DNA of 28,782 bases from Chloroflexota bacterium (lineage in GTDB: Bacteria; Chloroflexota; Limnocylindria; P2-11E). Each line of letters opens with the position of its first letter. Position 1 is the first letter of the stretch. The notes under the pieces were generated by a model. The model did not search any database. It was not told where the DNA came from and was given only the letters and a program-made list of their open reading frames with translations. The stretch lies in the NCBI GenBank assembly GCA_039934015.1, contig JBDTMY010000055.1, forward strand, positions 1 to 28,782, given 5' to 3'. Position numbers and translations under genes: made by a program. Shown here piece after piece: positions 6,135 through 26,379 of the stretch.

Positions 6135-6497
6135 GTCCAGCCCCCGCGGCTTCGCGTCCTGAACAGCACCAAGGGCACTGTCCTCGCCTCCGACTGCCGC
6201 GTCGCTGATTCGTTCCTGTCGCGCGCCCTCGGCCTGCTCCCGCGCTCGAGCCTTCGGGCGGGTGAGGGCCTGCGCATCACCAAGACGTCATCCATCACGA
6301 TGTGGCTCATGCGCTTCGCGATCGACGCCGTGTTCGTGGACCGCGCCGGGCGTGTCGTCCGCGTCGCGGAGCGGCTTCCGCCATGGCGCATGGCCGTCTT
6401 CGCGCGCGGCGCCGCCGAGGTCATCGAGCTGCCCGCCGGCACCGCTTCCGCGACGCGCACGCAAGCCGGCGACGAACTCGTCTTCGAGCCCGCGTGA
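6135..6497 (+). CDS. DUF192 family protein (about 120 aa); start codon uncertain and apparently non-canonical
   Basis: LRVLNSTKGTVLASDCRVADSFLSRALGLL...EGL...MRFAIDAVFVDRAGRVV...VIELPAG...GDEL; resemblance begins about 50 codons before the first ATG (6300). Confidence 0.85.
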   Translation, partial: VQPPRLRVLNSTKGTVLASDCRVADSFLSRALGLLPRSSLRAGEGLRITKTSSITMWLMRFAIDAVFVDRAGRVVRVAERLPPWRMAVFARGAAEVIELPAGTASATRTQAGDELVFEPA

Positions 6498-7114
6498 TCT
6501 CCAAAGCGGCCGCGGACGCCGCGCTCGACCTGCTCCTCGCTCCGCGGTGCGCCGGTTGCGGCGTCGCGGGTAGCTGGCTGTGCCTGGAATGCCGTGACCT
6601 GTGCGAGCCGGTCCGCACCGGGCGCGTCACCGCGGCCGGGACGTACGGCGGGCCGCTGCGCGAAGCCATCCACCGCTTCAAGTACGGCGGCGAGCGCGCA
6701 CTCGCGAACGAGCTCGGGGAGCTCGTCGCCGCATGCCTCGCGAGCGACATCGCGACCGGCACGGCGCTGGATGTCGTCGTGCCCGCGGTGCTGCACCCGG
6801 ATCGGGCGCGCTCGCGTGGCTACGACCAGGCCTGGCTGCTCGCCGCCGTCGTCGCCGAGCGCACGGCGTTGCCGCTGCGCGTGCCGCTCCGCAGGATCCG
6901 TCCCGCCGTGCCGCAGATCACGCTCGACCGTGCCGCGCGCGCGGAGAACCTGCGCGGCGCGTACGTCGCGGAGGCCGGTGCGCTTCGTGGCGCTAGGGTC
7001 GCGCTGGTGGACGACGTCGCAACGACCGGGGCAACACTCGCGGCGGCGAGCGGCGCATTGCGGGCGGCGGGAGCGCGCGCCGTGCGCTCGTACGTCGTCG
7101 CGCTGGACGTATGA
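6494..7114 (+). CDS. comF: ComF family competence protein (zinc ribbon plus PRT domain)
   Basis: GTG overlapping the DUF192 TGA; CAGC...CLEC, FKYGG, RGYDQA, LVDDVATTGATL. Confidence 0.93.
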   Translation: MISKAAADAALDLLLAPRCAGCGVAGSWLCLECRDLCEPVRTGRVTAAGTYGGPLREAIHRFKYGGERALANELGELVAACLASDIATGTALDVVVPAVLHPDRARSRGYDQAWLLAAVVAERTALPLRVPLRRIRPAVPQITLDRAARAENLRGAYVAEAGALRGARVALVDDVATTGATLAAASGALRAAGARAVRSYVVALDV

Positions 7115-8571
7115 GCGAGCGCGTTGGCCTCGCGCGGTGGCAGATGCGTGGCCTCCTGCTCTTCGTCCTCGCGTTCGCCAACCTCAACGACATCTGGTCA
7201 CCCGACGTGCTGCCGAACGCGCTCTTCGCGTGGACCGTCGTGAATGAGCGCGATGTCGATTACGACGAGTTCGTCTTCCGGCCCGCGGAGCGCGACATCC
7301 TCGCGAACGCCACGCCGGCTGGGACCGCGCTGACCAACAAGCTCGACTCGGAGGCGTATTTCTTCCGCGCCTGCGGCGAGTCGACCGCCGTGGATGCTCC
7401 GGGGACGACCCGCAGTCCCGGCGGCCCACCGGCGCCGGGCCCGAACGACCACGTGTGCTCCATCTTCCCGCCCGGCATCGCATTCCTCGCGTTCCCGTTC
7501 TTCCTGCCCTTCGTGGCTGCCGGCGCGGAGCCACTGAACCTGGGACTGCTGGTGCGCGTCGGTCACGTCGCCGCGGCCACGATCGAGGTCATTGCCACGC
7601 TCCTGCTCTGGTCGGTGATGCGTCGCTTCGCGAGCGCTCGCTGGGCGCTCGCGCTCGTGCTGCTGTATTTCCTCGGCACCAGCGTGCGCACGATCGCCGC
7701 GCAGGCGCTCTGGCAGCACGCCGGCGTGCATCTCGCCATCGCGATCGCGCTGTGGCTGGTCTTCCTGCCGAGACCGGTCGCCCTCTGGCGTGAATTCGCC
7801 GCAGGCGTCGCGCTCGGCTTCGGCGCCGTGGTGCGTCAGACGACCGGCGCGCTCGTGCCGTTCGTGCCGGCGGCGCGCATCCGCGCGACGATCCTCGCGA
7901 TCGTCGGGGCCGCGATCGGGGTGGTCCCGCTGGTCGTGTACAACGCGGTGGCGTTCGGCAACCCGCTCGAGCAGGGGTACGGCACGAAGCCCTTCGACGC
8001 GTCACCGCTCGTCGGCCTGTATGGCCTGCTGCTCTCGCCGAGCCGCGGCCTCTTCGTCTACGAGCCATACATCCTCTTCGCCTTCGCGGCGATCGTCCTG
8101 TTGAAGCCGGGTCGGGATCACCTCGAGCTACGGCTGCTCTCGCTCACCTACGCCTGGGCGGCGACGGCCATCCTCTATGCGACCTACGCGGAGTGGTGGG
8201 GCGGGCGTGTGTTCGGCCCGCGCTTTCTCGACGACCTCGCCCCGGCGCTGTTCGTGCTCCTGGCGTGGGGTATCGGACACGGCCTGCTCGCGCGATGGCC
8301 CGCGCGCGCCGCGTTCTGGGTCTGCGCCGCGTGGTCCCTGCTCATCTTTCAGGCCGCCGCATTCGTGTACGACCAGAGCACCTGGGACCTGCACCCGACC
8401 AACATCAACGTCGATCCGTCGCGCCTCTTCGACTGGAGCGACCCGCAGTGGCTGTTCGTCCTGCGCAGCCTGCCCGAGGGCGGGGTCGGCGTGATCGTGG
8501 CTGCCGGCCTCACGGCCCTCGCGCTTCTCTTCCTGCTGCGCGTGGAGTCGGTGCTACCGTCCCGTCGGTGA
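7111..8571 (+). CDS. Polytopic membrane protein, GT-C/PMT-like glycosyltransferase
   Basis: Many TM helices; acidic first loop (SPDVLPN...DVDYDEF); FPPG, LWQH, LLSPSRGLFVYEP, WWGGRVFGPRFL; ATGA overlap with comF. Confidence 0.65.
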   Translation: MSERVGLARWQMRGLLLFVLAFANLNDIWSPDVLPNALFAWTVVNERDVDYDEFVFRPAERDILANATPAGTALTNKLDSEAYFFRACGESTAVDAPGTTRSPGGPPAPGPNDHVCSIFPPGIAFLAFPFFLPFVAAGAEPLNLGLLVRVGHVAAATIEVIATLLLWSVMRRFASARWALALVLLYFLGTSVRTIAAQALWQHAGVHLAIAIALWLVFLPRPVALWREFAAGVALGFGAVVRQTTGALVPFVPAARIRATILAIVGAAIGVVPLVVYNAVAFGNPLEQGYGTKPFDASPLVGLYGLLLSPSRGLFVYEPYILFAFAAIVLLKPGRDHLELRLLSLTYAWAATAILYATYAEWWGGRVFGPRFLDDLAPALFVLLAWGIGHGLLARWPARAAFWVCAAWSLLIFQAAAFVYDQSTWDLHPTNINVDPSRLFDWSDPQWLFVLRSLPEGGVGVIVAAGLTALALLFLLRVESVLPSRR

Positions 8572-9674
8572 CGACGGCCTTCAGTGTCTTCTTCGGTCGC
8601 AGCGGTCCATCCGAGATCGAGCGGCGGCTCGATTCCATCAAGATCGCGATCGGCGCGCTGGTCGTCACGCGCGCGGGCGCCGCCGGATTCGACCCCTTGA
8701 TCGCGGTGACCGCGGATGAGGAGGCCCGCGCAGCGTTCGCACGCGGCGGTGCGGACGTGGTCGCCCCCCGCACCGACCCCTTCCACTTCGGCGAGGAGCT
8801 GCTCGCGCTGTCTCGCGAACGCCGGCTCGATCGGATGGCGACGATCGGGGCCGGCGCCGGCGCGCTGATGAGCATCGCCGAGCTCACACGGCTCCGCGAG
8901 GAGATCGACGCGGCTGAGGCGCTGGTCCTCTCGAACAACTACTACTCCGCCGACCTCGTCGCGTTCACGCCGGCGTCCGCGCTCACCGTCATCGACCTGC
9001 CGGCGACTGACAACCCGCTGCCGCGCCGGCTGCACCAACAGGGCGGTCTCTCGTCACGGCAGCTCGATCGCTCCGCGGCGACGCTCCTCGACGTCGACAC
9101 GCCGGCCGACGCCGCCGTTCTGAAACGACATCCCGCGTGCCCGCCGGAGCTGCGCACGCTCGACACCTGGGACGACGAGCTCGGCGAGCGCATCGACGCG
9201 CTCATGCGCCTGGTGACGACCCCGGAGCGGGAGCTCATCGTCGCGGGTCGCGTCGGCGCGCCGGTGTGGTCGTATCTCGAGTCCCAGACCGCGTGCCGGG
9301 TGCGCATGCTGGCCGAAGAGCGCGGCATGCAGGCCGCCGGGCGCGACAGCTTGGGCGCGGCGCGCACGGTCCTTGGCTTCCTCTATCGCGAGATCGGCCC
9401 CGAGTCGTTCTTCGCGCGCCTCGGCGAGCTTGGGAACGGGATGCTCTTCGATACGCGGGTGCTGTTCGCGCATCTCGGATGGCAGCTCTCGGCGCAGGAA
9501 CGTTTCGGTTCGGACCTGTTCCGCGCGGATTCGCTGGCGCATCCCGAGCTGCGTGCCTTCACCGAGGCGGCGCGTGCTGCCGCGTTCCCCCTGCTGCTCG
9601 GCGGGCACACCCTCGTATCGGGTGTGCTGTGGACGCTCGTCGAGGCGGCGTGGTCCGGGCACCCCGAGCCTTGA
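8568..9674 (+). CDS. Hypothetical protein (368 aa) with a CofC/NTP-transferase-like N-terminal half
   Basis: GTG overlapping the upstream TGA; LDVDTPAD resembles the C-terminal motif of CofC/MobA-type GT-A folds; C-terminal half unassigned. Confidence 0.6.
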   Translation: MTTAFSVFFGRSGPSEIERRLDSIKIAIGALVVTRAGAAGFDPLIAVTADEEARAAFARGGADVVAPRTDPFHFGEELLALSRERRLDRMATIGAGAGALMSIAELTRLREEIDAAEALVLSNNYYSADLVAFTPASALTVIDLPATDNPLPRRLHQQGGLSSRQLDRSAATLLDVDTPADAAVLKRHPACPPELRTLDTWDDELGERIDALMRLVTTPERELIVAGRVGAPVWSYLESQTACRVRMLAEERGMQAAGRDSLGAARTVLGFLYREIGPESFFARLGELGNGMLFDTRVLFAHLGWQLSAQERFGSDLFRADSLAHPELRAFTEAARAAAFPLLLGGHTLVSGVLWTLVEAAWSGHPEP

Positions 9675-10435
9675 CCCTGCGCCTTTTCGACCACCACATC
9701 CACACCGAGCGCTCCGACGGCACCGTCTCCCTCGCGGAGCGCGCGAGCACCGTGTCCGTGCGTCCGCACGGCGTCTCGGATCACTTCCCATGGCCGGGAA
9801 AGATGCGTGACGACGACGACGTGCTGCGGTATCTCGACGACGCCGCGCGGCTCGGGTTGCGCGTCGGTCTTGAGTACGACCTCGGCGTCGCGCCGCCGCT
9901 GCGTGCGACGACGCGCGCGTCTCTGCACTACATGATCGGCGCGCTGCACCAGCTGGACGTCGATGGCGTGCGCATCCCATTCGACGAGGCGGGCGCGTTC
10001 CTGAAGCGGAAGATCCCGTCGTTCACGGACCGCGCACGCTTCGGCGACAGCACGCTCGCGCGGCGCATCCGCGAGCGCATGCTCGAGGTCGTGCGCGAGG
10101 GCTTCGAACGTGACGGGATCGACATCCTCGGCCACGGCACGCTGTCGCCGCTCGCGGCCCGCGGGGATCCCGAACGCGACTACCCGGCCGAGTGGCAGGA
10201 GCAGCTCATCCAGCTGTGCATCGACGCGGACGTCGCGGTCGAGGTCAACGAGGCCTACGGAGTGCCACACCGCGAATTCCTCGAACGAGCACAGCGGATG
10301 GGAGCGCGGTTTTCGGTCGGCTCGGATACGCACGGGCCGCTCGCGCCGCTCGATAAGACGGCCGCGATGATCCTGGCCGCGTCACTCCCGCACGGGCGAT
10401 TCCTCGCGGGCGAACGGGTGCGCGAGGCGCGCTAG
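9671..10435 (+). CDS. PHP domain metal-dependent phosphoesterase
   Basis: TTG overlapping the upstream TGA; DHHIHTERSDG, SDH, GLE, GALH, LGH, EVN, GSDTH metal-ligand motifs. Confidence 0.9.
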   Translation: MTLRLFDHHIHTERSDGTVSLAERASTVSVRPHGVSDHFPWPGKMRDDDDVLRYLDDAARLGLRVGLEYDLGVAPPLRATTRASLHYMIGALHQLDVDGVRIPFDEAGAFLKRKIPSFTDRARFGDSTLARRIRERMLEVVREGFERDGIDILGHGTLSPLAARGDPERDYPAEWQEQLIQLCIDADVAVEVNEAYGVPHREFLERAQRMGARFSVGSDTHGPLAPLDKTAAMILAASLPHGRFLAGERVREAR

Positions 10436-10602
10436 ACGGGCGCGTCCTCCACCAGGAGCTCGTACACGAGAATGCCGATCGCGCCGAGCAGCATCAGGTG
10501 CACGAGGTTCCCGGCGATGTTCAGCGCAAGGGCCACGAACCATGCCGCCATGAGCAGCCAGACCGCCGTCCAGCGGATGCGGTGGCCTGTCGCGGTGCTC
10601 AT
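10432..10602 (-). CDS. Small membrane protein (56 aa), lmo0937/DUF5670-like
   Basis: WTAVWLLMAAWFVALALNIAGNLVHLMLLGAIGILV; TACCCT-N6-ATG leaderless arrangement. Confidence 0.7.
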   Translation of the reverse strand: MSTATGHRIRWTAVWLLMAAWFVALALNIAGNLVHLMLLGAIGILVYELLVEDAPV

Positions 10603-10608
10603 GAGGGG

Positions 10609-10627
10609 AGGGTATCGTCCGTATACT
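10609..10627. promoter_or_regulatory. Divergent -10 elements
   Basis: TACCCT on minus (10614-10609) 6 nt before ATG 10602; TATACT on plus (10622-10627) upstream of prs. Confidence 0.5.
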
Positions 10628-10678
10628 TTCAATGCAGGGGGGCGCGCTCCTGCTACTCAAAACAGCGGGAGGGGTGCC

Positions 10679-11668
10679 GTGTACGGGGGCCTGTCCGTCT
10701 ACACCGGCAACGCTCATCCGACGTTCGCGCGCGACATCTGCCGCACGCTGGAGATCCCGCTCGGACCGATCGAGGTCTTCAAGTTCGCGAACGACAACAT
10801 CTTCGTGAAGGTCAACCAGAACGTCCGCGAGCACGATGTCTACGTGGTCCAGTCCCTCACCGGTCCCTCGGTGAGCGACGCGATCATGGAGCTGCTGATC
10901 ATGATCGACGCCATCCGGCGGGCGTCGGCCGCGCGCATCACCGCGGTGATGCCCTATTACGCGTATGGCCGCAGCGATAAGAAGGACCAGCCACGCGTGC
11001 CCATCACTGCGCGGCTGCTGGCCGACCTCATCAGCGTCGCCGGCGCCACGCGCTTCCTGACGATGGACATGCATCAGATGCAGATCCAGGGTTTCTTCAG
11101 CATCCCCGGCGACGAGCTGTCGGGGAGGAACATGCTGGTCGAGTACCTGCGCACGATCGTCGACCCGTCGCCTGACGACTGCGCCCTCGTCGTGCCCGAC
11201 CTCGGCTACGCCAACCAGGCGCGCCGTATCGCGGAGATGCTGGACATCCCGCTGGTGTTCATGCAGAAGACGCATCGTGACAACAGCGGCCGGAGCGACG
11301 TCGTCGGCGTCATCGGCGACATCGACCGGAAGCGAACGATCGTGATCGACGACGAGATCGACCGCGGCACCACGATGCTCAACACCATCAAGGTCCTGCA
11401 GGAGCGCGGCGTCAACGAGATCTGGGCCGCGTGCACGCACGGCGTGTTCAGCGACAACGCCGCCGAGCGCCTCACCGCGAGCGGTATCGTGGAGCTCATC
11501 ACCACGGATACCTGCCCGATGCCGCCATCTGTGCGCAACAACGAGAAGGTGCGCGTCCTGACCGTCGCCCCGCTCTTCGCGGAGGCCATTCGCCGGATCC
11601 ACGGGGGCGAGTCCGTGGGCGCGCTCTTCAATCCGCCCGGATCGCAGATGCCGCTTCCGGTCACCTAG
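10679..11668 (+). CDS. prs: Ribose-phosphate pyrophosphokinase
   Basis: GTG with GGGAGG SD; FANDNIFV, ELLIMIDA, PYYAYGRSDKK, QIQGFF, IVIDDEID, HGVFS. Confidence 0.93.
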   Translation: MYGGLSVYTGNAHPTFARDICRTLEIPLGPIEVFKFANDNIFVKVNQNVREHDVYVVQSLTGPSVSDAIMELLIMIDAIRRASAARITAVMPYYAYGRSDKKDQPRVPITARLLADLISVAGATRFLTMDMHQMQIQGFFSIPGDELSGRNMLVEYLRTIVDPSPDDCALVVPDLGYANQARRIAEMLDIPLVFMQKTHRDNSGRSDVVGVIGDIDRKRTIVIDDEIDRGTTMLNTIKVLQERGVNEIWAACTHGVFSDNAAERLTASGIVELITTDTCPMPPSVRNNEKVRVLTVAPLFAEAIRRIHGGESVGALFNPPGSQMPLPVT

Positions 11669-11678
11669 CGATCGCCGC

Positions 11679-14291
11679 TTGAGCGTCCTAGGGCGCCTCT
11701 TCGACTCCAACGAGGGCGAGCTCCGGCGGCTGAAGAAGGTCGTCCAGCAGATCAACGCGCTCGAAGGCGGGACGAAGGCGCTGTCGGACGACGCGCTGCG
11801 CGCGCGGACCACGGAGTTCCGCGAACGCCTCGCGAAAGGCGAGACGCTCGACGGCATCCTGCCGGAGGCGTTCGCGACCGTGCGCGAGGCGGCGAGCCGC
11901 AGGCTCGGCCAGCGCCACTTCGACGAGCAGCTCATGGGCGCCATGGCGCTCCACAAGGGGCACATCGCGGAGATGAAGACCGGCGAGGGTAAGACCCTGG
12001 TCGCCTCCGCGGCGCTCTATCTCAACGCGCTGGCCGGAAAGGGCGCGCACCTCGTCACGACGAACGACTACCTCGCGAAGACGGGCGCCGGCTGGATGGC
12101 GCCGATCTACGACCTTCTCGGGATGAGCGTGGCGTACATCGCTCACGAGAAGTCGGCGCTCTACGACACCAGCGTGGTGCTCGAAGCCGTTGACGAGCGT
12201 CACCGCCACTGGCGAGACGCCACCCGGCGGGAGGCGTACATCGCCGATATCACCTACGGGCAGAACAGCGAATTCGGCTTCGACTATCTGCGCGACAACA
12301 TGGTCGACGATCTCGCGCGCATGGTGCAGCGGGACCTCTACTTCGCGATCGTCGACGAAGCGGACTCGATCCTCATCGACGAGGCGCGGACCCCGCTGAT
12401 CATCAGCTCGCCTGCGGAGGATGTCTCCGAGCAGTACTACCGCTTCGCTTCGGCCGCCAAGAAGCTGCAGCCGGAGACCGACTACATCGTCGAGGAGAAG
12501 CACCATGCGGTCTCGCTGACCGAAGAGGGCATCGCCAAGACCGAAAAGATGCTCGGCGTTCCCAACATGTACGAGGGCGACATCAGCGCGGTGCACTTCA
12601 TGGACAACGCCCTGAAGGCGCACGCCCTCTACCGCAAGGACAAGGAGTACGTCGTCAAGGACGGCGAGGTCGTCATCGTCGACGAGTTCACCGGCCGGCT
12701 GATGCCGGGTCGCCGCTGGAGCGACGGCCTGCACCAGGCGGTCGAGGCGAAGGAATCGGTCAAGATCCAGCGCGAGACGCGCACCTTCGCGACGATCACG
12801 ATCCAGAACTACTTCCGCATGTACGCCAAGCTGGCCGGCATGACCGGTACCGCCGCGACCGAGGCCGAGGAGCTCTTCAAGGTGTACAAGCTCGAGGTCA
12901 CGCAGCTCCCGACGCACCGGCCGATGGTCCGGAGGGATGACCCCGACCTCGTGTACGCGACCGAGCAGGGCAAGTGGAACGCGCTTATCGAGGACGTCAA
13001 GGAGCGGAACACGCGCGGCCAGCCCGTGCTCATCGGCACCACCTCGGTGGAGAAGAGCCAGCGGTTGTCCGACGAGCTGCGCCGGAATGGCATCAAGCAC
13101 GAGGTGCTGAACGCCAAGAACCACGAGCGCGAGGCGCTGATCATCGCCGACGCCGGCCAGCAGGGCGCCGTGACCCTCTCGACGAACATGGCCGGCCGCG
13201 GCGTCGACATCCTGCTGGGCGACGGTGTGGTGGGTCTCGGCGGGCTGCACGTCATCGGCACCGAGCGGCACGAGGCGCGTCGCATCGACAATCAGCTCCG
13301 CGGCCGCGCCGGGCGGCAGGGGGACCCGGGATCGACGCGCTTCTTCAACTCGCTCGAGGACGACCTGATCCGGATCTTCGCGTCCGAGCGCGTCGCCGGG
13401 CTCCTCGGGCGGATGGGCATGAACGACGAGGCCCCCATCGAGTCCGGGATGGTCACCGGTGCGATCACCCAGGCGCAGATCAAGGTCGAGACCCGGAACT
13501 TCGATATGCGCAAACGTGCGCTCGAGTTCGACGACGTGCTCAACAACCAGCGCAACGAGATCTACAAGGACCGCCGCAAGATCCTCGAGAAGGGCGACGT
13601 CCGTGAGACCGTCCTCGACTTCCTCCACGACGAAGCCGAGGCGATGGTCGACGCCGAGGCGGCTTCACCGGATCCGGAGGACTGGGACCTCGACAAGCTC
13701 GCCGCCGCGCTGGGAGCGCTGGTGGGTCGCGAACTCACTGCGGCGTCGTTCGGGCAGCCGGGCGGGCCCCCGGAGCTCAAAGAGAACGTCGCGCAGATCG
13801 TCGACGACACGTACGAGGCCAAGGCAGCGGATCTCGGGGATCCTGAGGTGATGCGAGCCGTGGAGCGCTGGGTGATGCTGCGAACGATCGACACGCACTG
13901 GATCGAGCACCTCACCGCGATGGAGGAGCTCCGCGAAGGGATCTACCTGCGCGGCTATGGCCAGCAGGATCCCCTCGTCGCGTACAAGAAGGAAGCGCAC
14001 GACTACTTCGAGCAGATGCAGACCCGCGTGGCCGCGGGCGTCGCTCAGACCGTGCTGCGCGTGTCGGTGCGAACCGCCGAGCAGGCCGAGCAAGATGAAC
14101 AGCAACAGGGCAGTGCGCCGCAGCAGACCTCGACGTCCGGGAACGGGACAAGTTCGACGGGGCGCAGCGACATGCGGACGAATCGGGACGAACAGATGCC
14201 GACGACAGCCAGCGGACGAGCGAAGCTGGGCCGAAACGATCCCTGCTGGTGTGGATCGGGCAAGAAATTCAAGAAGTGCCATGGGCGGTAG
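11679..14291 (+). CDS. secA: Preprotein translocase ATPase SecA
   Basis: MKTGEGKT, VDEADSILIDEARTPLIIS, QLRGRAGRQGDPG, C-terminal GRNDPCWCGSGKKFKKCHG. Confidence 0.98.
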   Translation: MSVLGRLFDSNEGELRRLKKVVQQINALEGGTKALSDDALRARTTEFRERLAKGETLDGILPEAFATVREAASRRLGQRHFDEQLMGAMALHKGHIAEMKTGEGKTLVASAALYLNALAGKGAHLVTTNDYLAKTGAGWMAPIYDLLGMSVAYIAHEKSALYDTSVVLEAVDERHRHWRDATRREAYIADITYGQNSEFGFDYLRDNMVDDLARMVQRDLYFAIVDEADSILIDEARTPLIISSPAEDVSEQYYRFASAAKKLQPETDYIVEEKHHAVSLTEEGIAKTEKMLGVPNMYEGDISAVHFMDNALKAHALYRKDKEYVVKDGEVVIVDEFTGRLMPGRRWSDGLHQAVEAKESVKIQRETRTFATITIQNYFRMYAKLAGMTGTAATEAEELFKVYKLEVTQLPTHRPMVRRDDPDLVYATEQGKWNALIEDVKERNTRGQPVLIGTTSVEKSQRLSDELRRNGIKHEVLNAKNHEREALIIADAGQQGAVTLSTNMAGRGVDILLGDGVVGLGGLHVIGTERHEARRIDNQLRGRAGRQGDPGSTRFFNSLEDDLIRIFASERVAGLLGRMGMNDEAPIESGMVTGAITQAQIKVETRNFDMRKRALEFDDVLNNQRNEIYKDRRKILEKGDVRETVLDFLHDEAEAMVDAEAASPDPEDWDLDKLAAALGALVGRELTAASFGQPGGPPELKENVAQIVDDTYEAKAADLGDPEVMRAVERWVMLRTIDTHWIEHLTAMEELREGIYLRGYGQQDPLVAYKKEAHDYFEQMQTRVAAGVAQTVLRVSVRTAEQAEQDEQQQGSAPQQTSTSGNGTSSTGRSDMRTNRDEQMPTTASGRAKLGRNDPCWCGSGKKFKKCHGR

Positions 14292-14303
14292 GGCCATGCG
14301 GCA

Positions 14304-14325
14304 CGCTGCCGGCGCAGAGGCAGCG
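14304..14325 (+). other. Hairpin between secA and lgt1
   Basis: CGCTGCC/GGCAGCG 7-bp stem, no U tract. Confidence 0.4.
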
Positions 14326-14339
14326 GGCGCCGACCGTCT

Positions 14340-15128
14340 GTGATCACCATCCCGTTCGATCCGAACATCCACCTTGGTCCGTTCACGATCGCGTGGCACG
14401 GGATCTTCACCGCGGTCGGCATCCTCTGCGGGGTGTGGCTCCCACTCCGTCTCATTCGTGCGCGCATCTCTGAGGACGACGCGACCGCCGTCGCCACGTG
14501 GGGTGTGGTCGCCGGCATCGTCGGCGCGCGACTCGTTCACGTCATCGACGCCTGGCAGTACTACGTCGCGAACCCGCTGCAGATCCTCCTGATCTGGACG
14601 GGTGGTATCGCTGTGTGGGGTGCAGCGATCTTCGGAACACTTGGCGGTGTGTTCGTCGCGATCCGGCGAGGCTTGCCCATCGGTTTTGGGGCTGATGCGG
14701 CCGCGCCAGGGATCCTTCTGGGCTTCGCGCTCGGCCGGATCGGCGACATCATCAACGGCGAGCATCACGCCACTCCGTGCGAAGCGCCCGTCGGTCTGTG
14801 CGTGGGATTCACGCACCCGGACACGCTCGGCCAGCCTGGGCCCGTGCACCTGGTCGTCGCGTACGACATGGCGTGGAACCTGATCGGGGTCGCCGGATCG
14901 CTGGCCCTCCGCGGCCGTGGTCTGCCTGAGGGACTGATCTTCTGGCTCGCGGGCGCCTGGTACGCGGTGGGCCGCTTCTTCCTCGGCTTCCTGCGCACCG
15001 TCGACCCCACGTACGCCTTCGGCCTGCGCGAGGACCAGGTCATCGCGATCCTCGTTCTCGCGGCGGCGATCCCCATGATCGCCCGCCTCACCATGTTCGG
15101 TCGCGCGCCGGAGCCGGTAGCGATCTGA
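14340..15128 (+). CDS. lgt: Prolipoprotein diacylglyceryl transferase-like protein, paralog 1 (divergent)
   Basis: IAWHG, GIVGARL, IWTGG, LGRIGDIINGE, GRFFLGFLR. Confidence 0.85.
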   Translation: MITIPFDPNIHLGPFTIAWHGIFTAVGILCGVWLPLRLIRARISEDDATAVATWGVVAGIVGARLVHVIDAWQYYVANPLQILLIWTGGIAVWGAAIFGTLGGVFVAIRRGLPIGFGADAAAPGILLGFALGRIGDIINGEHHATPCEAPVGLCVGFTHPDTLGQPGPVHLVVAYDMAWNLIGVAGSLALRGRGLPEGLIFWLAGAWYAVGRFFLGFLRTVDPTYAFGLREDQVIAILVLAAAIPMIARLTMFGRAPEPVAI

Positions 15129-15961
15129 TCGAGCTGCCGTTCGACCCGGATCTGGTGATCGGATCATTTCGCATCGCGTGGCACTCGGTCTTCGCCTTCG
15201 TGGGCCTGGCGGTCGGCAGCATCGTCTCGATCCGCTGCGCGCGCTACCTGATACGCGACGAGCGGGTCTATCCCTTCGCCATTGCCGTCGTTCTGGGCGG
15301 ACTCATCGGCGCGCGGATCGCTCACGTCACGGATAACTGGGCGCTCTATGCGAACGATCCGCTGCGCGCGCTTCAGTTCTGGAGCGGGGGCATCGGCACG
15401 ATGGGCGCGCCGATCGGCTCGACGGTCTCGGGCTATCTCGCCGCGCGCTGGCTTCGCCTGCCGGTCGGCTTCATGTTCGACGTCACGGTCATCGGCATCG
15501 CGCTCGGTGAGGCGATCGGCCGCATCGGCGACATCGTCAACGGCGAGCATCACTCCGTGCCATGCGCGGACCTGCCGTGGTGCGTCCGCTACACGCACCC
15601 GGACACCCTGGGACAGGCGACGTCGGTCCATCCGATCGGTGTCTACGACGGCCTGCTGATGCTTGCGATCTTCGCCGTGGTCTACCTGTACTGGCGGCGC
15701 ATCCGGGGGCGCCCGCCCGAGGCCCGCGTTTGGTTTGCCTACCTGCTGCTCCTCGGCGGGGGCCGGTTCCTCCTGTCCTTCCTGCGGACCGACCCGCTGT
15801 TCTTCGGGGGGCTCCAGCAGGCCCAGCTTCTCGGGCTCCTCTATTTGGGCGCTGGAGCGGTCACTTTGCCTCTGCTGGAGCGCCGAGCAGCCTGGTTAGC
15901 GAACGTGCCGCAAGCACAAAATGGGGAAAAACCCCTTCTCAAACCGGTGTCAGACCGGTAA
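15125..15961 (+). CDS. lgt: Lgt-like protein, paralog 2 (probable CTG start)
   Basis: GGLIGARI, FWSGG, IGRIGDIVNGE, GRFLLSFLR; N-terminus aligns with paralog 1 from CTG 15125; the ORF track starts at GTG 15155. Confidence 0.85.
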   Translation: MIELPFDPDLVIGSFRIAWHSVFAFVGLAVGSIVSIRCARYLIRDERVYPFAIAVVLGGLIGARIAHVTDNWALYANDPLRALQFWSGGIGTMGAPIGSTVSGYLAARWLRLPVGFMFDVTVIGIALGEAIGRIGDIVNGEHHSVPCADLPWCVRYTHPDTLGQATSVHPIGVYDGLLMLAIFAVVYLYWRRIRGRPPEARVWFAYLLLLGGGRFLLSFLRTDPLFFGGLQQAQLLGLLYLGAGAVTLPLLERRAAWLANVPQAQNGEKPLLKPVSDR

Positions 15962-16204: not shown

Positions 16205-16210
16205 ACCGTC

Positions 16211-17315
16211 GTGACGGTGGACCTGGCGGCGCTCGCCGCTCTGCGCGAGCGCATCGACCGCATGGCGGTGTTCCTTTGACCTCCCCACTCTTCGCCGCGA
16301 GGTCGCGCGTCTAGACGCGGAGTCCTCCGCGCCCGACCTCTGGAACGATCGCAAGCACGCGCAGCAGGTCATGAAGCGACTGGGCCTCATCCGTGCGCGT
16401 GTCGACCGCTGGGAGTCCTTTCGCCAGCGTGCGGCTGACCTCACGGAGCTGGCCTCGCTGGCCGATGACCCCGCGCTCAGCGCCGATCTCGAGCGCGAGC
16501 TGCAGCAGCTCGTGGCCGATGTCGACAAGGCGAGCCTCGAGGCGCAGCTGGGCGGTCCGTACGACGAGCGCGACGCGGTCGTCGCGATCTCGGCCGGCGT
16601 CGGTGGGACGGACGCCGCGGACTGGGCCCAGACGCTCGTGCGCATGTATCTGCGGTGGGCCGAGCGGCACGGTTTCAAAGCGGAGATCGTCGAGTCGACG
16701 CCCGGCGACGAGGCGGGCATCCGCAGCGCGACGATCACGGTCGAGGGTCCCTACGCGTACGGATATCTCAAGACCGAGCGCGGCACGCATCGGCTGGTGC
16801 GCATTTCCCCGTTCGATTTCCAGAAGCGGCGACAGACGTCATTCGCGCTGGTCGATCCGACCCCGCAGGTCGAGGACGACGCCGAGATCGAGATCCGCCC
16901 AGAGGAGCTCAAGATCGACACCTACCGCGCCACCGGTGCCGGTGGCCAGAACGTCAACAAGACGGAGACCGCTATACGCATCACGCATCTGCCGAGCGGC
17001 ATCGTCGTCTCTTGCCAGAATGAGCGCTCGCAGCTGCAGAACCGTGAGACCGCGATGCGCATCCTCAAAGCGAGACTCCTGGAGAAGCGCGTTCTGGAGC
17101 AGGAGGCCGAGCAGGCACGCGAGCGTGGCGAGATGCGCTCCGCCGACTGGGGCAGCCAGATCCGCTCGTACGTCCTCCACCCCTACACCCTGGTCAAGGA
17201 TCACCGGACCGGCGTCGAGGTCGGAGACCCAACGCGAGTCCTCGATGGGGACATCGACGTGTTCATCGAGGCTGCCCTGTCTAGGCCAACCGCCGGTGGC
17301 ACACCGCCTGCTTAG
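16211..17315 (+). CDS. prfB: Peptide chain release factor 2 with programmed +1 frameshift (about 367 aa)
   Basis: GTG 16211, 22 codons to CTT TGA C (16274-16280), continuing DLPTLRREV...DLWND; SPF and GGQ motifs. Confidence 0.97.
16264..16280 (+). promoter_or_regulatory. prfB +1 frameshift cassette
   Basis: GGCGGTG-TTC-CTTTGAC. Confidence 0.92.
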
Positions 17316-19090: not shown

Positions 19091-19111
19091 CGGCTGAGTA
19101 TCGGGCCCTGG

Positions 19112-19827
<716 letters not shown>

Positions 19828-19828
<1 letters not shown>

Positions 19829-20604: not shown

Positions 20605-21782
20605 CGCTCGACGTCCACCACGGTCGCCCGTTCTTGTGCGACGGCGCCCTCGTCATCTTCGGCGGCGTGCAGCTCCGCTTTGACGCGCGCGCTCGGGAAC
20701 AGGCCCTCAGGTCGCACGAGCATCATGACCACCAGCGCGATGCCGAAGATGAGCTGGCGCGAGCGGCTCACGTCCATGAACTGGAGATCCTGGTTGTTTA
20801 TCGCCGCACCGATGCCGTGGATGAACCCCGATATCCAATCGAAGAGCACCCGGTCGACGAAACCAAGCAACAGCCCGCCGGCGATCACGCCGCCGATGTT
20901 GCCCAGGCCCCCCAGGATGATCATGCAGAGCACGAAGATGGAGACCGAGAAGTCGAACTGCTCCGGTGCGATGACCTGCAGGTAGCTGGCCCAGATCGAG
21001 CCGGCGAAGCCGGAGAAGCTCGCGCCGAGCGCGAAGGCGAACAGCTTCGTGGTCACGAGGTTGACGCCCATCGAGGCGGCCGCGACCTCGTCTTCCCGCA
21101 TCGCCGCCCACGCGCGGCCGACCCGCGACGTGCGTAACCGGGCCGTGATCAGGACCGATAGCAGCAGGACCGCGACGATGAGGTAGTACCAGGGGACGGG
21201 GTCGACGGCGAACTGCAGGCCGGGGATCTCGGGATAGCCGATCGGGTTCATTCCCTGGGTGCCCTTGGTGATCTCCGGCGTGTTCTTGATGACGAGCGGC
21301 ACGATCTCGCCGAATCCGAGCGTCACGATCGCGAGATAGTCGCCGCGCAGGCGCAGCGTCGGCGCGCCGAGGAGCACCCCGAATATCGCCGCGACGGCCG
21401 CGCTGATGAACATGGCGAGAAAGAAGTTCACGTGGTTGCCTTCGCGCACGAAGCCGATCGGGCTGACGGTGGAGGTCAGGAAGGCCATGGTGTACGCGCC
21501 GATCGCGAAGAACGCCGCATACCCGAGGTCGAGCAGTCCCGCGAAGCCGACGACGACGTTGAGGCCGAGCGCCAGGACGATGAACAACGTGATCGGGATG
21601 GCCTTGGCCTCCCACCCGAGGCCGAGCAGGTTGTTTACGAGCGGGAACAGCAGCGCAGCGCCGATGCCGAGGATCGTTCCGAACATCTTCCGCTCGCGCG
21701 CCTTGCCGGTCGCCGTGTACCACCAGCCCAGCGTCGAGCGCGTGCGCGACGACGGCTTGGGCGCCGGCGGCGCGGGCTTCAC
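20601..21782 (-). CDS. livM: Branched-chain amino acid ABC permease
   Basis: GTG 21782 overlapping the livH TGA; LGLNVVVGFAGLLDLGYAAF, LRLRGDYLAIVTLGFGEI. Confidence 0.93.
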   Translation of the reverse strand: MKPAPPAPKPSSRTRSTLGWWYTATGKARERKMFGTILGIGAALLFPLVNNLLGLGWEAKAIPITLFIVLALGLNVVVGFAGLLDLGYAAFFAIGAYTMAFLTSTVSPIGFVREGNHVNFFLAMFISAAVAAIFGVLLGAPTLRLRGDYLAIVTLGFGEIVPLVIKNTPEITKGTQGMNPIGYPEIPGLQFAVDPVPWYYLIVAVLLLSVLITARLRTSRVGRAWAAMREDEVAAASMGVNLVTTKLFAFALGASFSGFAGSIWASYLQVIAPEQFDFSVSIFVLCMIILGGLGNIGGVIAGGLLLGFVDRVLFDWISGFIHGIGAAINNQDLQFMDVSRSRQLIFGIALVVMMLVRPEGLFPSARVKAELHAAEDDEGAVAQERATVVDVER

Positions 21783-22711
21783 GCCTTCTCTCCGGTCTCC
21801 TGGCCCATCAGACCGGTCGGCCTGAACACGAGGATGATCACGAGGAGCGAGAACACTCCGACGTTCTCCCACTGTCCGCCGAAGTACGTCACGGTAAGGG
21901 CGGACAGCAGGCCGAGAACGAAGCCCCCCAGCGCCGCCCCGTTCACGTTACCGATGCCGCCGAGCACCGCCGCGGTGAAGGCCTTGAGACCCGCGGTGAA
22001 GCCCAGCGTGAACACCGTGTTGTTGTTGTAGAGGCCGTACATGAGCGAGGCAGCCCCCGCGAGCACGCCGCCGAGAAGGAACGTGAAGGCGATGACGCGG
22101 TTCACGTCGATGCCCATCTGCTGGGCCATCTCGCTGTCCTGCGCCACGGCGCGCATCGCTTTGCCCATGCGCGTGCTCCGGATGACCCAGGCCAGACCGA
22201 GCATCAACGGGATGGCGAGCGCAAGCACGAACAGATCCTTGAACGTGAACCGGATGAGCGACTCGAAGCCGAGCAGCTCACTGACGAAGTCGTATTGGGG
22301 GAGGAGATCGGGGAAACGGCGCGGGGTCGGACCCTGCCAGAAGAGCCCGATGTTGACGAACACGAACGAGACGCCGATCGCGGAGATGAGCGGGGCGAGT
22401 CGCGGCGCGCGTCGCAGCGGTCGATACGCGATCCGTTCCGCCAGGACATTGAGCAGGCCGCAGAAGATCATCGCCGCGAGCATCGCGAGCAGCAGCGCCA
22501 CCCAGGGCGTCCCCGTGATCCCGACTTCGGTGCTGAAGCCGAGCAGCGTCAGGGTGCTGAGGCAGACGAAGGTGCCGAGCATGAACAGGTCGCCGTGCGC
22601 GAAGTTGATCAGCTCGATGATCCCGTAGACGAGCGTGTAGCCAAGCGCGATGAGCGCGATGAACGCGCCATTGGTGATCCCGATCATCACGGCGGCCAGG
22701 AAGAGGTCTAT
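21779..22711 (-). CDS. livH: Branched-chain amino acid ABC permease (start ATA 22711 or GTG 22726)
   Basis: ALIALGYTLVYGIIELINFAHGDLFM, GLKAFTAAVLGGIG, FRPTGL. Confidence 0.93.
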   Translation of the reverse strand: MDLFLAAVMIGITNGAFIALIALGYTLVYGIIELINFAHGDLFMLGTFVCLSTLTLLGFSTEVGITGTPWVALLLAMLAAMIFCGLLNVLAERIAYRPLRRAPRLAPLISAIGVSFVFVNIGLFWQGPTPRRFPDLLPQYDFVSELLGFESLIRFTFKDLFVLALAIPLMLGLAWVIRSTRMGKAMRAVAQDSEMAQQMGIDVNRVIAFTFLLGGVLAGAASLMYGLYNNNTVFTLGFTAGLKAFTAAVLGGIGNVNGAALGGFVLGLLSALTVTYFGGQWENVGVFSLLVIILVFRPTGLMGQETGEKA

Positions 22712-22730
22712 CTGCCACCCTCCCACACAC

Positions 22731-22773
22731 GAAAACGGGGCGGGAGACCGGATCCCTCCGGCTTCCCGCCCCG
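22731..22773 (-). terminator. Hairpin between livJ and livH (partial terminator or stabiliser)
   Basis: CGGGGCGGGA/TCCCGCCCCG outer stem plus CCGGA/TCCGG inner stem; TTTT follows on the minus strand. Confidence 0.75.
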
Positions 22774-22798
22774 ATTCTGCACTACGGCGTCTGGTTGG

Positions 22799-24034
22799 CT
22801 ACTTGGCGGCAAGCTCCTTGACGAAGGACCATGCGCCGCTCTTGCTGATGGAGCCCGAGAACTGCGTCAGCGTGGTGTCGCCGCCCGCGTCGAACGACCA
22901 CTTGCCGAGGACGCCGTCGTAGTCCTTGGTGCCCATGACGTTGGCCTGGACCGTCGCGCGGTCATCGGCCTTGTCGCCGGCTTTCGCGATCGCCGCGAGA
23001 ACGACCTTCGCCGCCTCGTAGCCGTAGATCGCGTACGGGTTCGGGTTGTTGTTGTTGTACTTGGCGTTGTAGCTCTTGAGCCACTCGGAGGCCTTGCCGG
23101 TGTACTTCTCCGGCGGCACGCCACCGAACGTCGAGTACGTGTCCGTGTTCGCGGACGGGCCGGCCTGCTTCAGGAACTCCGAGCAGTTGATGCCGTCGGG
23201 GCCCATGAACTTGATGGTCGGGATGACCGCGCGCAGGTCCTTGAGCAGGACCGCGGGGTTGTTGTCCACGATGCCGCCGTAGTAGACGAGGTCGGCACCG
23301 GCGTCCTTGACCTTGTTCGCCAGGGCACGGTAGTTGTCAGCCTTCTGCGCGCCTTCGTAACCGGCCTCGGCGAGCCCGAGCGCCTTTGCCTTTGCGCGGA
23401 AGACGTCCGCGATGCCCTTTCCGTAGAGCTCGGTGTCGTGGACGATGTAGACCTTCTTCGCGCCGAGCTCCTGTGCCCAGGTCGCGCCCACTGCGCCCTG
23501 GATGTCGTCGGCGGGAACGACGCGCGCGTAGTTGCGCTTGCCGTTCGGGTAGTACTTGCCCGGCTCGTCCGGCTCGGCGCCCTTCTCAGGACCCTTCGTC
23601 AGACCCGGGTAGGTGTTGGCCGGCGACACCATCACGAGACCCGCCTGGTTGAGGAGCGGGATCGAGATCTTCGCCGCGCCGGAGTTGTACGTCCCGATGT
23701 AGGCCACGACCGATTTGTCGTTGATGGCCTTGCGGGCGTTCTCGGCTTCCTGCGCCGCGTCCCACGAGCCCTTCGCCGCCGTGGCGTCGTCGAGTGCCTC
23801 GAAGTTCACGGTCACGTTCGGGATCTTGGTCTCCGCGATCGCCAGCTGGATCGAGTTCACGATCTCAACTGTCTGTGTGCGCGACGCCCCGGTCATCGGC
23901 AGGCTGGAAATGATCTTGACCGTCTTGGCTGTCGACGCGCCTGTTGTGCCGCCCGTGCCGGCACCGCCACACGCGCCCATGACGAGCGCGAGAGCGGTGA
24001 TGGCTGCGGCGGCGGTTGTCCATCGTCTCTGCAT
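22799..24034 (-). CDS. livJ: Branched-chain amino acid ABC substrate-binding lipoprotein
   Basis: GGGAGG SD before ATG 24034; lipobox LVMGAC; YIGTYNSG, SPANTYPGLT, PYAIYGYEA. Confidence 0.9.
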   Translation of the reverse strand: MQRRWTTAAAAITALALVMGACGGAGTGGTTGASTAKTVKIISSLPMTGASRTQTVEIVNSIQLAIAETKIPNVTVNFEALDDATAAKGSWDAAQEAENARKAINDKSVVAYIGTYNSGAAKISIPLLNQAGLVMVSPANTYPGLTKGPEKGAEPDEPGKYYPNGKRNYARVVPADDIQGAVGATWAQELGAKKVYIVHDTELYGKGIADVFRAKAKALGLAEAGYEGAQKADNYRALANKVKDAGADLVYYGGIVDNNPAVLLKDLRAVIPTIKFMGPDGINCSEFLKQAGPSANTDTYSTFGGVPPEKYTGKASEWLKSYNAKYNNNNPNPYAIYGYEAAKVVLAAIAKAGDKADDRATVQANVMGTKDYDGVLGKWSFDAGGDTTLTQFSGSISKSGAWSFVKELAAK

Positions 24035-24181
24035 GCGAACCTCCCTAGCGGTCTGGTCGGATAATGGCTCGACCCTGGCGGGCCGCTCTCCCTGCGCCGA
24101 CAGCCGCGTGATCGGGTGAGTCTGGCGTCGGGCGCCCCGTGCGTCAACGAAGACGAAGGACCACCCTTGTACGCTCGGTGG

Positions 24182-25363
24182 GTGCCACGTCGCGGCGCTA
24201 CCGGCCTGCTCGCGCTCCTGTTCATCGCCGCGGGGTGCTCGGCGCAACCTCCGGTGGTCTCGCGGCCGACCCCGCTTTCGACCACACCGCCGGATCGCGC
24301 CCCGGCGGGCCTTCCCTCAGGTCGAGTCCTATTTAGTAAGGGGGGTCTGGACCTCTGGAGCGCCGGCCCGGACGGGAGCGGCCGCGCCCCGGTCACCACC
24401 GACGGCGCCGCCTCCGGCGGCTACCTCGGCGCTCGCTGGTCCCCGGACGGGACGCTTGTCGCCGCCGAGCGCGCGGCGCCGGGTGAGGGCGGGAGCTCGC
24501 TGTTCCTCGTCCGTCCGGGGATGGTGCCGCTGCGCCTCTCACGACCCGACACGTTCCTCGACGGATACGTCTGGTCCCCGGACGGTCGATACCTCGCGTA
24601 CGGCGAGGTGATCTCGGGCGGCACCGCCGCGTCCGGCGGATCGCTCGCGGGCGCCGTAGGGGACGTCCACCTTTATGACGTCACCACGGCGACCGACATG
24701 GTCGTCGGGCCCGGCACGCATCCCGCGTTCACGCCTGACGGCACTCGTCTCGGATACGCGCACGTCTCCGGCGCCATCGCGCTGGCCGACATGCGCGTGC
24801 TCGCGTCCGGCAGACCAAAGGAGCTCCCGACGCAGCTGCTCGTGACGCTCGCCGATCTCACGCGCTACTCGACGGTCAGCGCATCCCGAGGCATGGGCCT
24901 CATCGGCGGTCCGCAGTTCTCAGCCGACGGCAAGCTGGTCGCGTACGCCGCGATCGAGAAGGGTCCGATCCTCGACGCCGTGCAGATCGTGTACACGCAG
25001 GAGCTCGTCGCGGGCGCGCCGCCGAAGCTGTGGGTGATAGGGAAGACCGGCGCCATCCACCATGTCGCGGAGCTGCGCTGGTCGCCAACGGCACCGTTGC
25101 TCGCGTACTCGATCATCAACGCGCAGCCGCATCACCACTGGCTCAGCGTCATCGATCCGGGAAGCGGTCAGCGCCGCGAGCTGTACGACTCGGCGAAGCA
25201 CTTTCTCGACTTCACCTGGTCACCTGACGGCGCGGTCCTCCTCGTCCAGGTCGACGACGGTGACGAGTGGCTGTACTTCCGGCCCGACCGCGCCGGCCCG
25301 ATCGGACGGGTCGCGCCGGGTGGTTGGCGGCCGGAGTGGTGTCGCTGTGTCTCCCGCGCGTAG
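24182..25363 (+). CDS. TolB/PD40-like beta-propeller lipoprotein
   Basis: Signal RRGATGLLALLFIAAG|C; repeats RWSPDG, VWSPDG, AFTPDG, QFSADG, RWSPTA, TWSPDG; start uncertain. Confidence 0.8.
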   Translation: MPRRGATGLLALLFIAAGCSAQPPVVSRPTPLSTTPPDRAPAGLPSGRVLFSKGGLDLWSAGPDGSGRAPVTTDGAASGGYLGARWSPDGTLVAAERAAPGEGGSSLFLVRPGMVPLRLSRPDTFLDGYVWSPDGRYLAYGEVISGGTAASGGSLAGAVGDVHLYDVTTATDMVVGPGTHPAFTPDGTRLGYAHVSGAIALADMRVLASGRPKELPTQLLVTLADLTRYSTVSASRGMGLIGGPQFSADGKLVAYAAIEKGPILDAVQIVYTQELVAGAPPKLWVIGKTGAIHHVAELRWSPTAPLLAYSIINAQPHHHWLSVIDPGSGQRRELYDSAKHFLDFTWSPDGAVLLVQVDDGDEWLYFRPDRAGPIGRVAPGGWRPEWCRCVSRA

Positions 25364-26093
25364 GGCCCCGGCCGTTCGCACCGCGCCGAGGGCGCGCGAG
25401 GATCCGGCGGTGCGACGCCGCCGGGCGCGGGCGATCCTGACGCGACTCGCCAAGGCGAATCCCGACTGGGGGCCGACGCTCGAGTTCGGCAGCCCCTTCG
25501 AGCTTCTCGTCGCGACGATCCTTGCCGCGCAGGCACAGGACGAGCACATCAACCAGGTCACACGCGCGCTGTTCGTGAAATACCGCGGACCCGCCGATTA
25601 CGTGAAGGTCCCAGTCGAGGAGCTTGAGCGCGACGTTCACGCCACGGGCTTCTTCAGGATGAAGGCGAAGGCGATCCGCGGCGCCTCGGAGCAGATCCTC
25701 ACCGAGTTCGGCGGCGAGGTCCCGGGCGATATGGATTCGCTCGTGCGGCTCCGCGGCGTCGGTCGCAAGACCGCATCGATCGTGCTTGGGAACGCTTTCA
25801 GCGTGCCGGCGATCGCCGTCGACCGGCACGTCGAGCGCGTCGCCACCCGGCTCGGCTTCACCCGGAAGGGAGCCGACGGCATCGAGGAGGAGCTGCGCTC
25901 TCTCTATCCCAAGCGGGACTGGGTGAAGGCGACATGGAATCTCGTGCTGCACGGCCGGCGCATCTGCACCCCGACGCCGAAATGTCCGATCTGTCCGATC
26001 ATCGAGCTCTGCCCGTATCCGAAGAAGACCAGAGCCGCGCGCACCACGCGCCAAGCACCGCGACCGCGATCAGCAGCGCGTCAGAGAGGATGA
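25347..26093 (+). CDS. nth: Endonuclease III (HhH-GPD, 4Fe-4S)
   Basis: PFELLVATILAAQ, LRGVGRKTA, AVDRHV, C-x5-C-x2-C-x5-C; GTG 25347. Confidence 0.93.
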   Translation: MSPARRAPAVRTAPRAREDPAVRRRRARAILTRLAKANPDWGPTLEFGSPFELLVATILAAQAQDEHINQVTRALFVKYRGPADYVKVPVEELERDVHATGFFRMKAKAIRGASEQILTEFGGEVPGDMDSLVRLRGVGRKTASIVLGNAFSVPAIAVDRHVERVATRLGFTRKGADGIEEELRSLYPKRDWVKATWNLVLHGRRICTPTPKCPICPIIELCPYPKKTRAARTTRQAPRPRSAARQRG

Positions 26094-26379
26094 CCACAGC
26101 CGTGTCGGTGAGCTGATCGGCCAGGTACACGGCCGGCAGGACGCCCAGCGCCGCACAGATCACATAGCCCGCACCCACAAGCGCCCCGTGATAGACGGGG
26201 GCTTCGGAAGCCCGTTTTCCGGCCAAAATGCCAGAAACGAAGAGACCGAAAACGGATGCTAGCGCTGCCGGGATCGGGGGCAGCACAGCGCGACCCAGGA
26301 GTGTTACCGCGACGGCAAGCACGACACCCGCGAGGATCGCGGGCCACTCGAGGCGGGGTACCTGTCGCTGCGAGTTGAT
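25999..26379 (-). CDS. Small 4-TM membrane protein (TIGR04086-like); start ATC 26379 or GTG 26322
   Basis: LEWPAILAGVVLAVAV...GILAGKRASEAPVYHGALVG; the first TM helix begins upstream of GTG 26322. Confidence 0.65.
   Translation of the reverse strand: MNSQRQVPRLEWPAILAGVVLAVAVTLLGRAVLPPIPAALASVFGLFVSGILAGKRASEAPVYHGALVGAGYVICAALGVLPAVYLADQLTDTAVVILSDALLIAVAVLGAWCARLWSSSDTGRAR

Follow-up and report, generated by a model that had tools for sequence, protein, structure and literature searches.

Can a bacterial lineage begin an appreciable share of its genes at codons that are neither ATG nor GTG nor TTG? This question is raised by a stretch of DNA of 28,782 nucleotides (nt), contig JBDTMY010000055.1 of an uncultured soil bacterium of the Chloroflexota, class Candidatus Limnocylindria (GenBank assembly GCA_039934015.1), referred to below in its entirety as the window. 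An initial annotation, made from the sequence alone, had placed the starts of four of its genes at non-canonical codons: GTC at 6135 (a DUF192 gene), CTG at 15125 (lgt2), ATA at 22711 (livH) and ATC at 26379 (a gene for a small membrane protein). All four codons are indeed present at these positions. As contig C55, the window belongs to a metagenome-assembled genome (MAG) of 1.78 Mb in 241 contigs, 68% complete and with about 66% G+C (G000), which we compared with the genomes of 25 other species in its genus (g1) and with outgroups from the same class; comparisons of individual sites drew on 18-25 g1 species genomes. The alignments show that a usable canonical codon is absent at these N-termini, and that the odd codon is conserved across species and is exchanged with ATG, GTG or TTG in some of them. 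The four genes, and with them about 2-4% of the genes in the genus, probably do begin at near-cognate codons, which would be decoded by the ordinary initiator tRNA.

Proposed start codons of four genes in the window

The absence of a usable canonical codon is clear for the DUF192 gene, which has none for 55 codons, and for lgt2, which has none upstream and a downstream GTG that is not conserved; for livH and the small membrane gene it holds genus-wide and not strictly in the window itself. Exchange with canonical starts in the same alignment column is seen for lgt2 (CTG, TTG or GTG), for DUF192 (GTC in the genus, ATG or GTG in the outgroups) and, elsewhere in the genome, for accC (CTG, GTG or TTG). 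The initial annotation had called for ortholog alignments, and in these relatives keep the odd codons, TTG or GTG occupying the lgt2 column in just two of them. Each of the four sites is accompanied by a signal that could position a ribosome: a GGAGG 7 nt ahead of livH, the stop codon of lgt1 overlapping the CTG of lgt2 as CTGA, a directly abutting stop codon at DUF192, and a TANNNT hexamer 6 nt ahead of the small gene.

The gene lgt2 (15125-15961, plus strand; Pfam LGT) is the second of two tandem genes for prolipoprotein diacylglyceryl transferase, and its proposed CTG (15125-15127) overlaps the TGA stop of lgt1 (15126-15128). The reading frame is open back to position 14930, and the first canonical codon in it is GTG 15155, located 10 codons past the CTG, in a column that reads GTC, GCG or CTG in relatives. 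The CTG itself aligns with the GTG start of the paralogue lgt1 and is found in 16 of 18 genus genomes, the remaining two having TTG (G003) and GTG (G012). In three relatives an in-frame TGA lies four codons ahead of the CTG, and a canonical codon is absent for more than 25 codons. Of the codons for Leu only 34% are CTG, and where Leu columns are conserved between G000 and the same-genus genome G002, CTG persists in 44% of them. The tandem pair as such (14340-15961, plus strand; 43% identical) is kept in 18 of the 18 genus genomes sampled.

The livH-type gene for a branched-chain amino acid permease (21779-22711, minus strand; Pfam BPD_transp_2) starts, according to the proposal, at ATA 22711-22709, with the Shine-Dalgarno (SD) sequence GGAGG (within GGGAGGG; 22719-22723) 7 nt upstream. 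ATA is found in the window and in nine relatives (a duplication of 6 nt has displaced it in one of these), and ATC replaces it in G002 and G014; a GGGAGG-like sequence is retained 6-8 nt ahead of the ATA or ATC in all close relatives. ATA is otherwise rare: it accounts for 1.7% of the codons for Ile, and of the Ile columns that are conserved only 4.6% retain it (G000 versus G002). The initial annotation was right about the ATA and the GGAGG; it overlooked an in-frame GTG at 22726, inside the SD sequence and five codons upstream of the ATA, as well as GTG and ATG at codons 8-9. Just 3 of 10 genomes have the upstream GTG, and three relatives have an in-frame stop codon between its position and the ATA. 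G002 has no canonical codon in livH for 67 codons.

The small membrane protein gene (25999-26379, minus strand; 126 codons, with a weak likeness to DUF5518) has its proposed start at ATC 26379-26377, and 6 nt upstream of it lies a -10-like hexamer, TAGAGT (26386-26391), which itself holds an in-frame TAG stop. The first canonical codon, GTG 26322 (codon 20), falls within the first transmembrane helix. Each of the 18 genus genomes with this gene has the ATC (in three of them the preceding codon is GTG), and TACAGT, TAGAGT or TACTCT is kept 6-8 nt ahead of it across the genus. Codon 7 is GTA in the window and GCG in G005, and in the distant half of the genus it is neither ATG nor GTG. Just upstream of the -10 box we also observed a terminator hairpin with a T-run (26405-26445, minus strand), conserved nearly base for base throughout the genus, which closes the minus-strand unit noted earlier as a gene for a 17-codon Lys-rich peptide; an Rfam scan of the window, the hairpin included, matched no family.

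The DUF192 gene (6135-6497, plus strand) is a frame of 120 codons in which the Pfam DUF192 match covers residues 21-116; its proposed GTC start (6135-6137) directly follows the TAA stop (6132-6134, plus strand) of a tadC-like (T2SSF) gene, with which it is in frame in the window. The first ATG, GTG or TTG of this frame is ATG 6300, at codon 56 and thus within the Pfam match. GTC directly follows the TAA or TAG of tadC in 11 genus genomes and is also kept in G014 and G003, though the tadC stop there lies in another frame, so that the total reaches 13. GTT takes this position once (G011), and CTG or ATC are candidate starts in G013, G017 and G002. In the genus g2 an ATC overlaps the tadC stop (TAATC). 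In the outgroups the aligned codon is ATG or GTG, and its distance to a conserved Asn, 8-9 codons, equals that of the GTC. Translation of DUF192 is presumably coupled to that of tadC. Its exact start codon (the GTC or another near-cognate among the first nine codons) is less certain than those of the other three genes.

Genome-wide occurrence and sequence contexts

The initial annotation had suggested a habit of the lineage and had proposed a genome-wide count of such starts. The former is borne out beyond the four genes, by a census, by accC and the class A penicillin-binding protein gene (PBP1A) described below, and by the conservation across the genus; the latter gave about 12 curated cases in 616 genes. 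For the census, stop-to-stop open reading frames of G000 and G002 (1.44 Mb of the latter used; median amino-acid identity to G000 71%) were paired by BLASTP. A naive count of any homology before the first canonical codon (188 of 603 pairs) was rejected: it is made up of conserved non-coding DNA, a tRNA gene, and the end of the upstream gene in another frame. Under the strict filter at least six aligned codons had to precede the first canonical codon, and we demanded an identity of 40% or more, periodicity of G+C at third codon positions (GC3) and an excess of third-position mismatches. It yielded 17 automated matches in 616 genes of G000 and 20 in 667 of G002, nine of them common to both, and it recovered as positive controls the +1 frameshift of prfB and the TGA codon for selenocysteine (Sec) in selD. 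The latter gene (contig C191 of G000, at about 2293, plus strand) has its in-frame TGA in the context C-A-G-TGA-G-A-K-L-G-P-G, the same as in G002. Inspection, that is, our own reading of the pairwise alignments, left about 12 curated cases per genome (12/616, or 1.9%). When the start was masked in 310 confidently canonical genes, the strict test had a sensitivity of 41-50%; since only such a fraction of events is detected, the true rate is probably nearer 4%, and we estimate that 2-4% of the genes in the genome start non-canonically.

Reassignment of a stop codon was considered, many alignments starting immediately behind a stop, and rejected, as the stops right before the alignments (31 TGA, 12 TAG and 12 TAA) are near background (323, 145 and 70 overall), and the lone true in-frame stop read through in the census is the Sec codon of selD.

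The curated cases are spread over contigs and functions. Behind SD sequences we found accC (C178), with GGAGGAGG located 6 nt ahead of a CTG in both G000 and G002; miaA (C110), with GGAGG 7 nt ahead of an ACG in both genomes; a TadE-like gene (C169), with CTG in both; and a TldD/PmbA gene (C152), with ATC. Behind TANNNT hexamers there are the PBP1A gene (C214; TAGCAT, 6 nt, ATC in both genomes), the gene for acetyl-CoA synthetase, acs (C177; TACGAT, 6 nt, ATC in G000 and ATG in G002), and an M16 peptidase gene (C97; TAAACT, 6 nt, ATC). Further cases are birA (C178; ATA in G000, GTG in G002), a FemAB-like gene (C7; CTG and ATG, respectively) and a gene without a name (C152; ATC and GTG). Those seen in G002 alone include dtd (CTG, where G000 has GTG) and a GT2 gene (CTG). 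Two genes were followed more widely. Behind AGGAGG, five genus-level genomes begin accC with CTG, one with GTG and one with TTG, and in more distant Limnocylindrales the start is ATG, one codon later. PBP1A has TAGCAT, TACGAT or TACCAT and, after 6 nt, ATC in 22 of 22 genomes (one of which, G032, row L360, is unpublished; the claim is independent of it), with in-frame stops directly ahead of the ATC and an N-terminus that evolves like coding sequence.

How ordinary these surroundings are can be judged from the 310 confident start columns (G000 versus G002), which are ATG in 46%, GTG in 46% and TTG in 8% of cases; the earlier statement that TTG and GTG dominate is thus only partly right, GTG equalling ATG and TTG being infrequent. 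A TANNNT conserved in both genomes lies 5-8 nt before 46 of the 310 starts (15%), all of which are ATG or GTG, and in 35% the start overlaps the upstream stop codon as NTGA. The lineage thus appears to be rich in coupled and leaderless genes. The three contexts of the odd starts are thus ordinary ones for this genome. If the small gene and PBP1A are leaderless, their ATC would depart from the rule in E. coli, mycobacteria and Deinococcus, where leaderless mRNAs have a 5'-terminal AUG or GUG.

Each of these contexts suggests a route by which a near-cognate codon might be used. At livH (ATA), accC (CTG), miaA (ACG) and infC (ATA) a strong SD sequence ahead of the codon would position the ribosome. 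At codons that adjoin or overlap an upstream stop, such as the CTGA of lgt2 and the TAA followed by GTC of DUF192, terminating ribosomes would re-initiate. At the small gene, PBP1A, acs and the M16 peptidase gene the ATC, 6-8 nt behind a -10 box, would occupy the position at which a leaderless mRNA begins. All of them would be weak starts that set low expression, and they would probably still be subject to discrimination by initiation factor 3 (IF3), since its gene, infC, keeps an ATA start of its own.

Initiation machinery and alternative explanations

The gene infC is absent from the incomplete MAG of the window and is present in 17 of 18 genus relatives (e.g. in G005, L082:1249-2025, plus strand). 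Its start is an ATA 7 nt behind GGAGG across the class, including the genus g4. The core of IF3 aligns to solved IF3 structures with an E-value of 1e-45. In g1 it retains Y75, R131, R133, E134 and R168, which we take, on a provisional E. coli numbering and as a lead only, to be the residues hit by classical fidelity mutants, and on the same assumed numbering R99 is replaced by Thr and R147 by Gln. The protein of g1 carries a Pro/Ala-rich C-terminal tail of 40-106 residues, frequently with PRKRTN at its end; that of g4 is acidic and comprises about 60 residues, and in g2 it has just 12-17. Every genome checked has a canonical initiator tRNA (C1, three G-C pairs, CAU anticodon), and in these incomplete data no tRNA resembling it turned up with a different anticodon. 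RsmD and KsgA are present. Members of the RsmB/RsmF family of m5C 16S rRNA methyltransferases (TIGR00563, PF01189) did not score over the cut-off in G002, G003, G005, G022 and G024, which are 91-98% complete; among control genomes PF01189 exceeded the cut-off in 13 of 14 and TIGR00563 in just 5 of 14. In E. coli the loss of RsmB barely alters initiation (PMC3643588), and we regard the absence of RsmB/RsmF as a weak lead to a cause.

The autoregulatory arrangement of infC works only where IF3 still discriminates against near-cognate codons. Because infC keeps its SD sequence and ATA, the initiator tRNA is canonical and the core of IF3 is ordinary, we favour weak starts policed by IF3 over a disabled proofreading system. 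The altered IF3 that the initial annotation had put forward as the cause is not supported by these features, and of its phrase "relaxed or regulated" selection the second adjective, or simply "weak", fits better than the first. There may still be a modest, lineage-specific relaxation of start selection. A stronger form of this idea, in which a changed initiation apparatus (the IF3 tail, the substitutions R99T and R147Q, or a lack of RsmB/RsmF) has relaxed proofreading so that near-cognate starts accumulate, agrees with the outgroup ATG or GTG of DUF192 and accC, which makes the non-canonical states derived, with the genus-specific tail and two replaced arginines of IF3, and with the five nearly complete genomes in which RsmB/RsmF was not found over the cut-off. 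We nevertheless consider it rather unlikely, as the conserved start of infC implies working discrimination, the fidelity residues of IF3 (on the numbering we assume) are conserved, the initiator tRNA, RsmD and KsgA are in place, RsmB matters little for initiation in E. coli, RsmB was also not found in g4, where few odd starts were seen, and Geobacillus IF3 has Ser at position 99.

Several observations weigh against non-canonical initiation as such. The case is one of comparative inference. No SD sequence precedes the GTC of DUF192, and G008 has no obvious near-cognate codon after the tadC stop. Within the genome, a test for enrichment of SD and -10 motifs did not single out near-cognate codons (the background of GGAG or GAGG is 8%), nor did a two-genome motif test single out CTG or ATC, one-codon indels misaligning the known cases. 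In a control genus, g4 (G022 versus G024, 400 kb each, 277 pairs), there were 9 and 3 automated matches, mostly frameshifted fragments, with just one or two plausible CTG starts in 277; this rate of 0.4-0.7%, compared with 1.9% in g1, is not a significant difference at these numbers. Furthermore, a start at GTG 15155 would leave the Pfam LGT domain intact, as would a start at the ATG of livH codon 9 the BPD_transp_2 domain; the ten closest genomes all keep this ATG. In the small gene, 9 of 11 close relatives have ATG or GTG at codon 7.

The last three points are what one would expect if translation began at the canonical codon that comes next downstream (GTG 15155, ATG at about 22687, GTG 26322 and ATG 6300) and the conserved upstream codons belonged to an untranslated leader, being maintained for some other reason. 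This reading is nonetheless improbable. The downstream codons are not conserved in the genus: the GTG of lgt2 gives way to GTC, GCG or CTG, livH of G002 offers nothing canonical for 67 codons, and the distant half of the genus has no canonical codon near codon 7 of the small gene. The upstream segments look like coding sequence, with changes at third positions and high GC3; a start at ATG 6300 would cut some 35 residues off the DUF192 domain; and the SD sequence of livH is 7 nt from the ATA as compared with about 30 nt from the ATG. For DUF192 alone, read-through of the tadC TAA could be imagined to produce a TadC-DUF192 fusion that needs no initiation of its own, in keeping with the 11 genus genomes in which the two genes are in frame across a single TAA or TAG. 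Such a fusion is very unlikely, as the two genes do not keep one frame relation (G002, G003 and G014 have another frame and g2 has TAATC) while the N-terminus of DUF192 is kept; in the outgroups the gene has a separate ATG or GTG start. Assembly or sequencing errors, the alternative named in the initial annotation, might be suspected in a MAG fragmented into 241 contigs, where each odd codon is one base off a canonical start. They are excluded because the odd codons are conserved across up to 25 independently assembled species genomes, the identical codons recurring in 10-22 of them; moreover, near-identical DNA is present in at least six soil sequencing runs from four studies (50-89% of sampled words over a 10-kb stretch), no RNA run being among those listed with the sequence.

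On the control side, we observed that several genes of the near-closed G022 are split by frameshifts in comparison with G024 (G022:C2:420001-820000, G024:C7:630001-1030000), which may represent assembly indels or pseudogenes.

Comparison with known systems

Initiation at near-cognate codons, as proposed here and as known from infC, pcnB and sigR, has several precedents. In E. coli and most bacteria infC starts at AUU, AUA or AUC and is autoregulated by IF3 (PMC5472188, PMC2830850). The livH gene resembles it in having a near-cognate Ile codon behind a good SD sequence that is kept in relatives, and in fact copies the geometry of infC in this lineage. The difference is that in the genomes analysed here a large number of housekeeping and envelope genes, unrelated to one another, would use the device under putative control by IF3. 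In Streptomyces, sigR has an IF3-repressed GTC start, with GTC in 32 and GTT in 2 of 34 sequences (Feeney et al. 2017, PMC5472188), and the GTC of DUF192 is similarly conserved across the genus with an occasional GTT (13 GTC and 1 GTT). Unlike that of DUF192, the GTC of sigR stands behind a strong AGGAGGTG ribosome-binding site; for a GTC that follows an upstream stop directly and has no SD sequence, termination-coupled re-initiation seems the likelier route.

In Deinococcus deserti and Deinococcus-Thermus, dnaA starts at ATC, rpsL and Deide_03051 at CTG, and infC at ATA (Baudet et al. 2010, PMC2830850). There, as proposed here, housekeeping genes have conserved ATC and CTG starts, and many mRNAs of the lineage are leaderless. 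Those four genes were proven by N-terminal proteomics, whereas our estimate of dozens rests on comparison. The leaderless genes of D. deserti use only ATG or GTG, and its ATC and CTG genes are leadered (PMC4007540), in contrast to the ATC that we find at a putative leaderless position. In Mycobacterium tuberculosis, CTG, ATT and ATC were not enriched in Ribo-RET, and RUG is the first codon of leaderless mRNAs (PMC9094748). Leaderless mRNAs with non-AUG starts are reported from mammalian mitochondria (PMC11775629), which makes for a likeness in the AUN-type starts at the 5' end; mitochondria differ in having another genetic code, a specialised tRNA-Met and IF3mt, and of such changes there is no sign in the genomes compared here. 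Our literature search found no paper on such starts in Chloroflexi, nor a precedent for ATC where a leaderless mRNA would start. ATC at this putative leaderless position is the most unusual element of the proposed set.

We suggest, tentatively, that soil Limnocylindria run a widened repertoire of start codons as part of normal gene expression, possibly including AUC at leaderless 5' ends. The bacteria studied so far need AUG or GUG at such ends (RUG in M. tuberculosis, PMC9094748; ATG or GTG in D. deserti, PMC4007540), and the ATC codons behind promoters would put the rule of a 5' AUG or GUG for leaderless translation to the test. If the suggestion is correct, it would imply either that leaderless starts are recognised differently or that IF3 tunes a large regulon with envelope and housekeeping functions, and accC, miaA, birA, PBP1A, acs, livH, lgt and the accessory genes of Tad pili may form a class whose expression is tied to the level of IF3. 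It would also bear on the question, asked by Baudet et al. (2010; PMC2830850), whether non-canonical starts are commoner in some phyla, some of which might be much heavier users of them. There is a practical side as well. Standard gene callers allow only ATG, GTG and TTG, and if 2-4% is the true proportion in this widespread soil lineage, they would truncate dozens of proteins in each genome or extend them wrongly, with the errors passing into protein databases.

Apart from the four genes, the window contains prfB (16215-17315, plus strand), which has a classical site of +1 programmed frameshifting, CTT TGA C, at 16274-16280, also found in G002.

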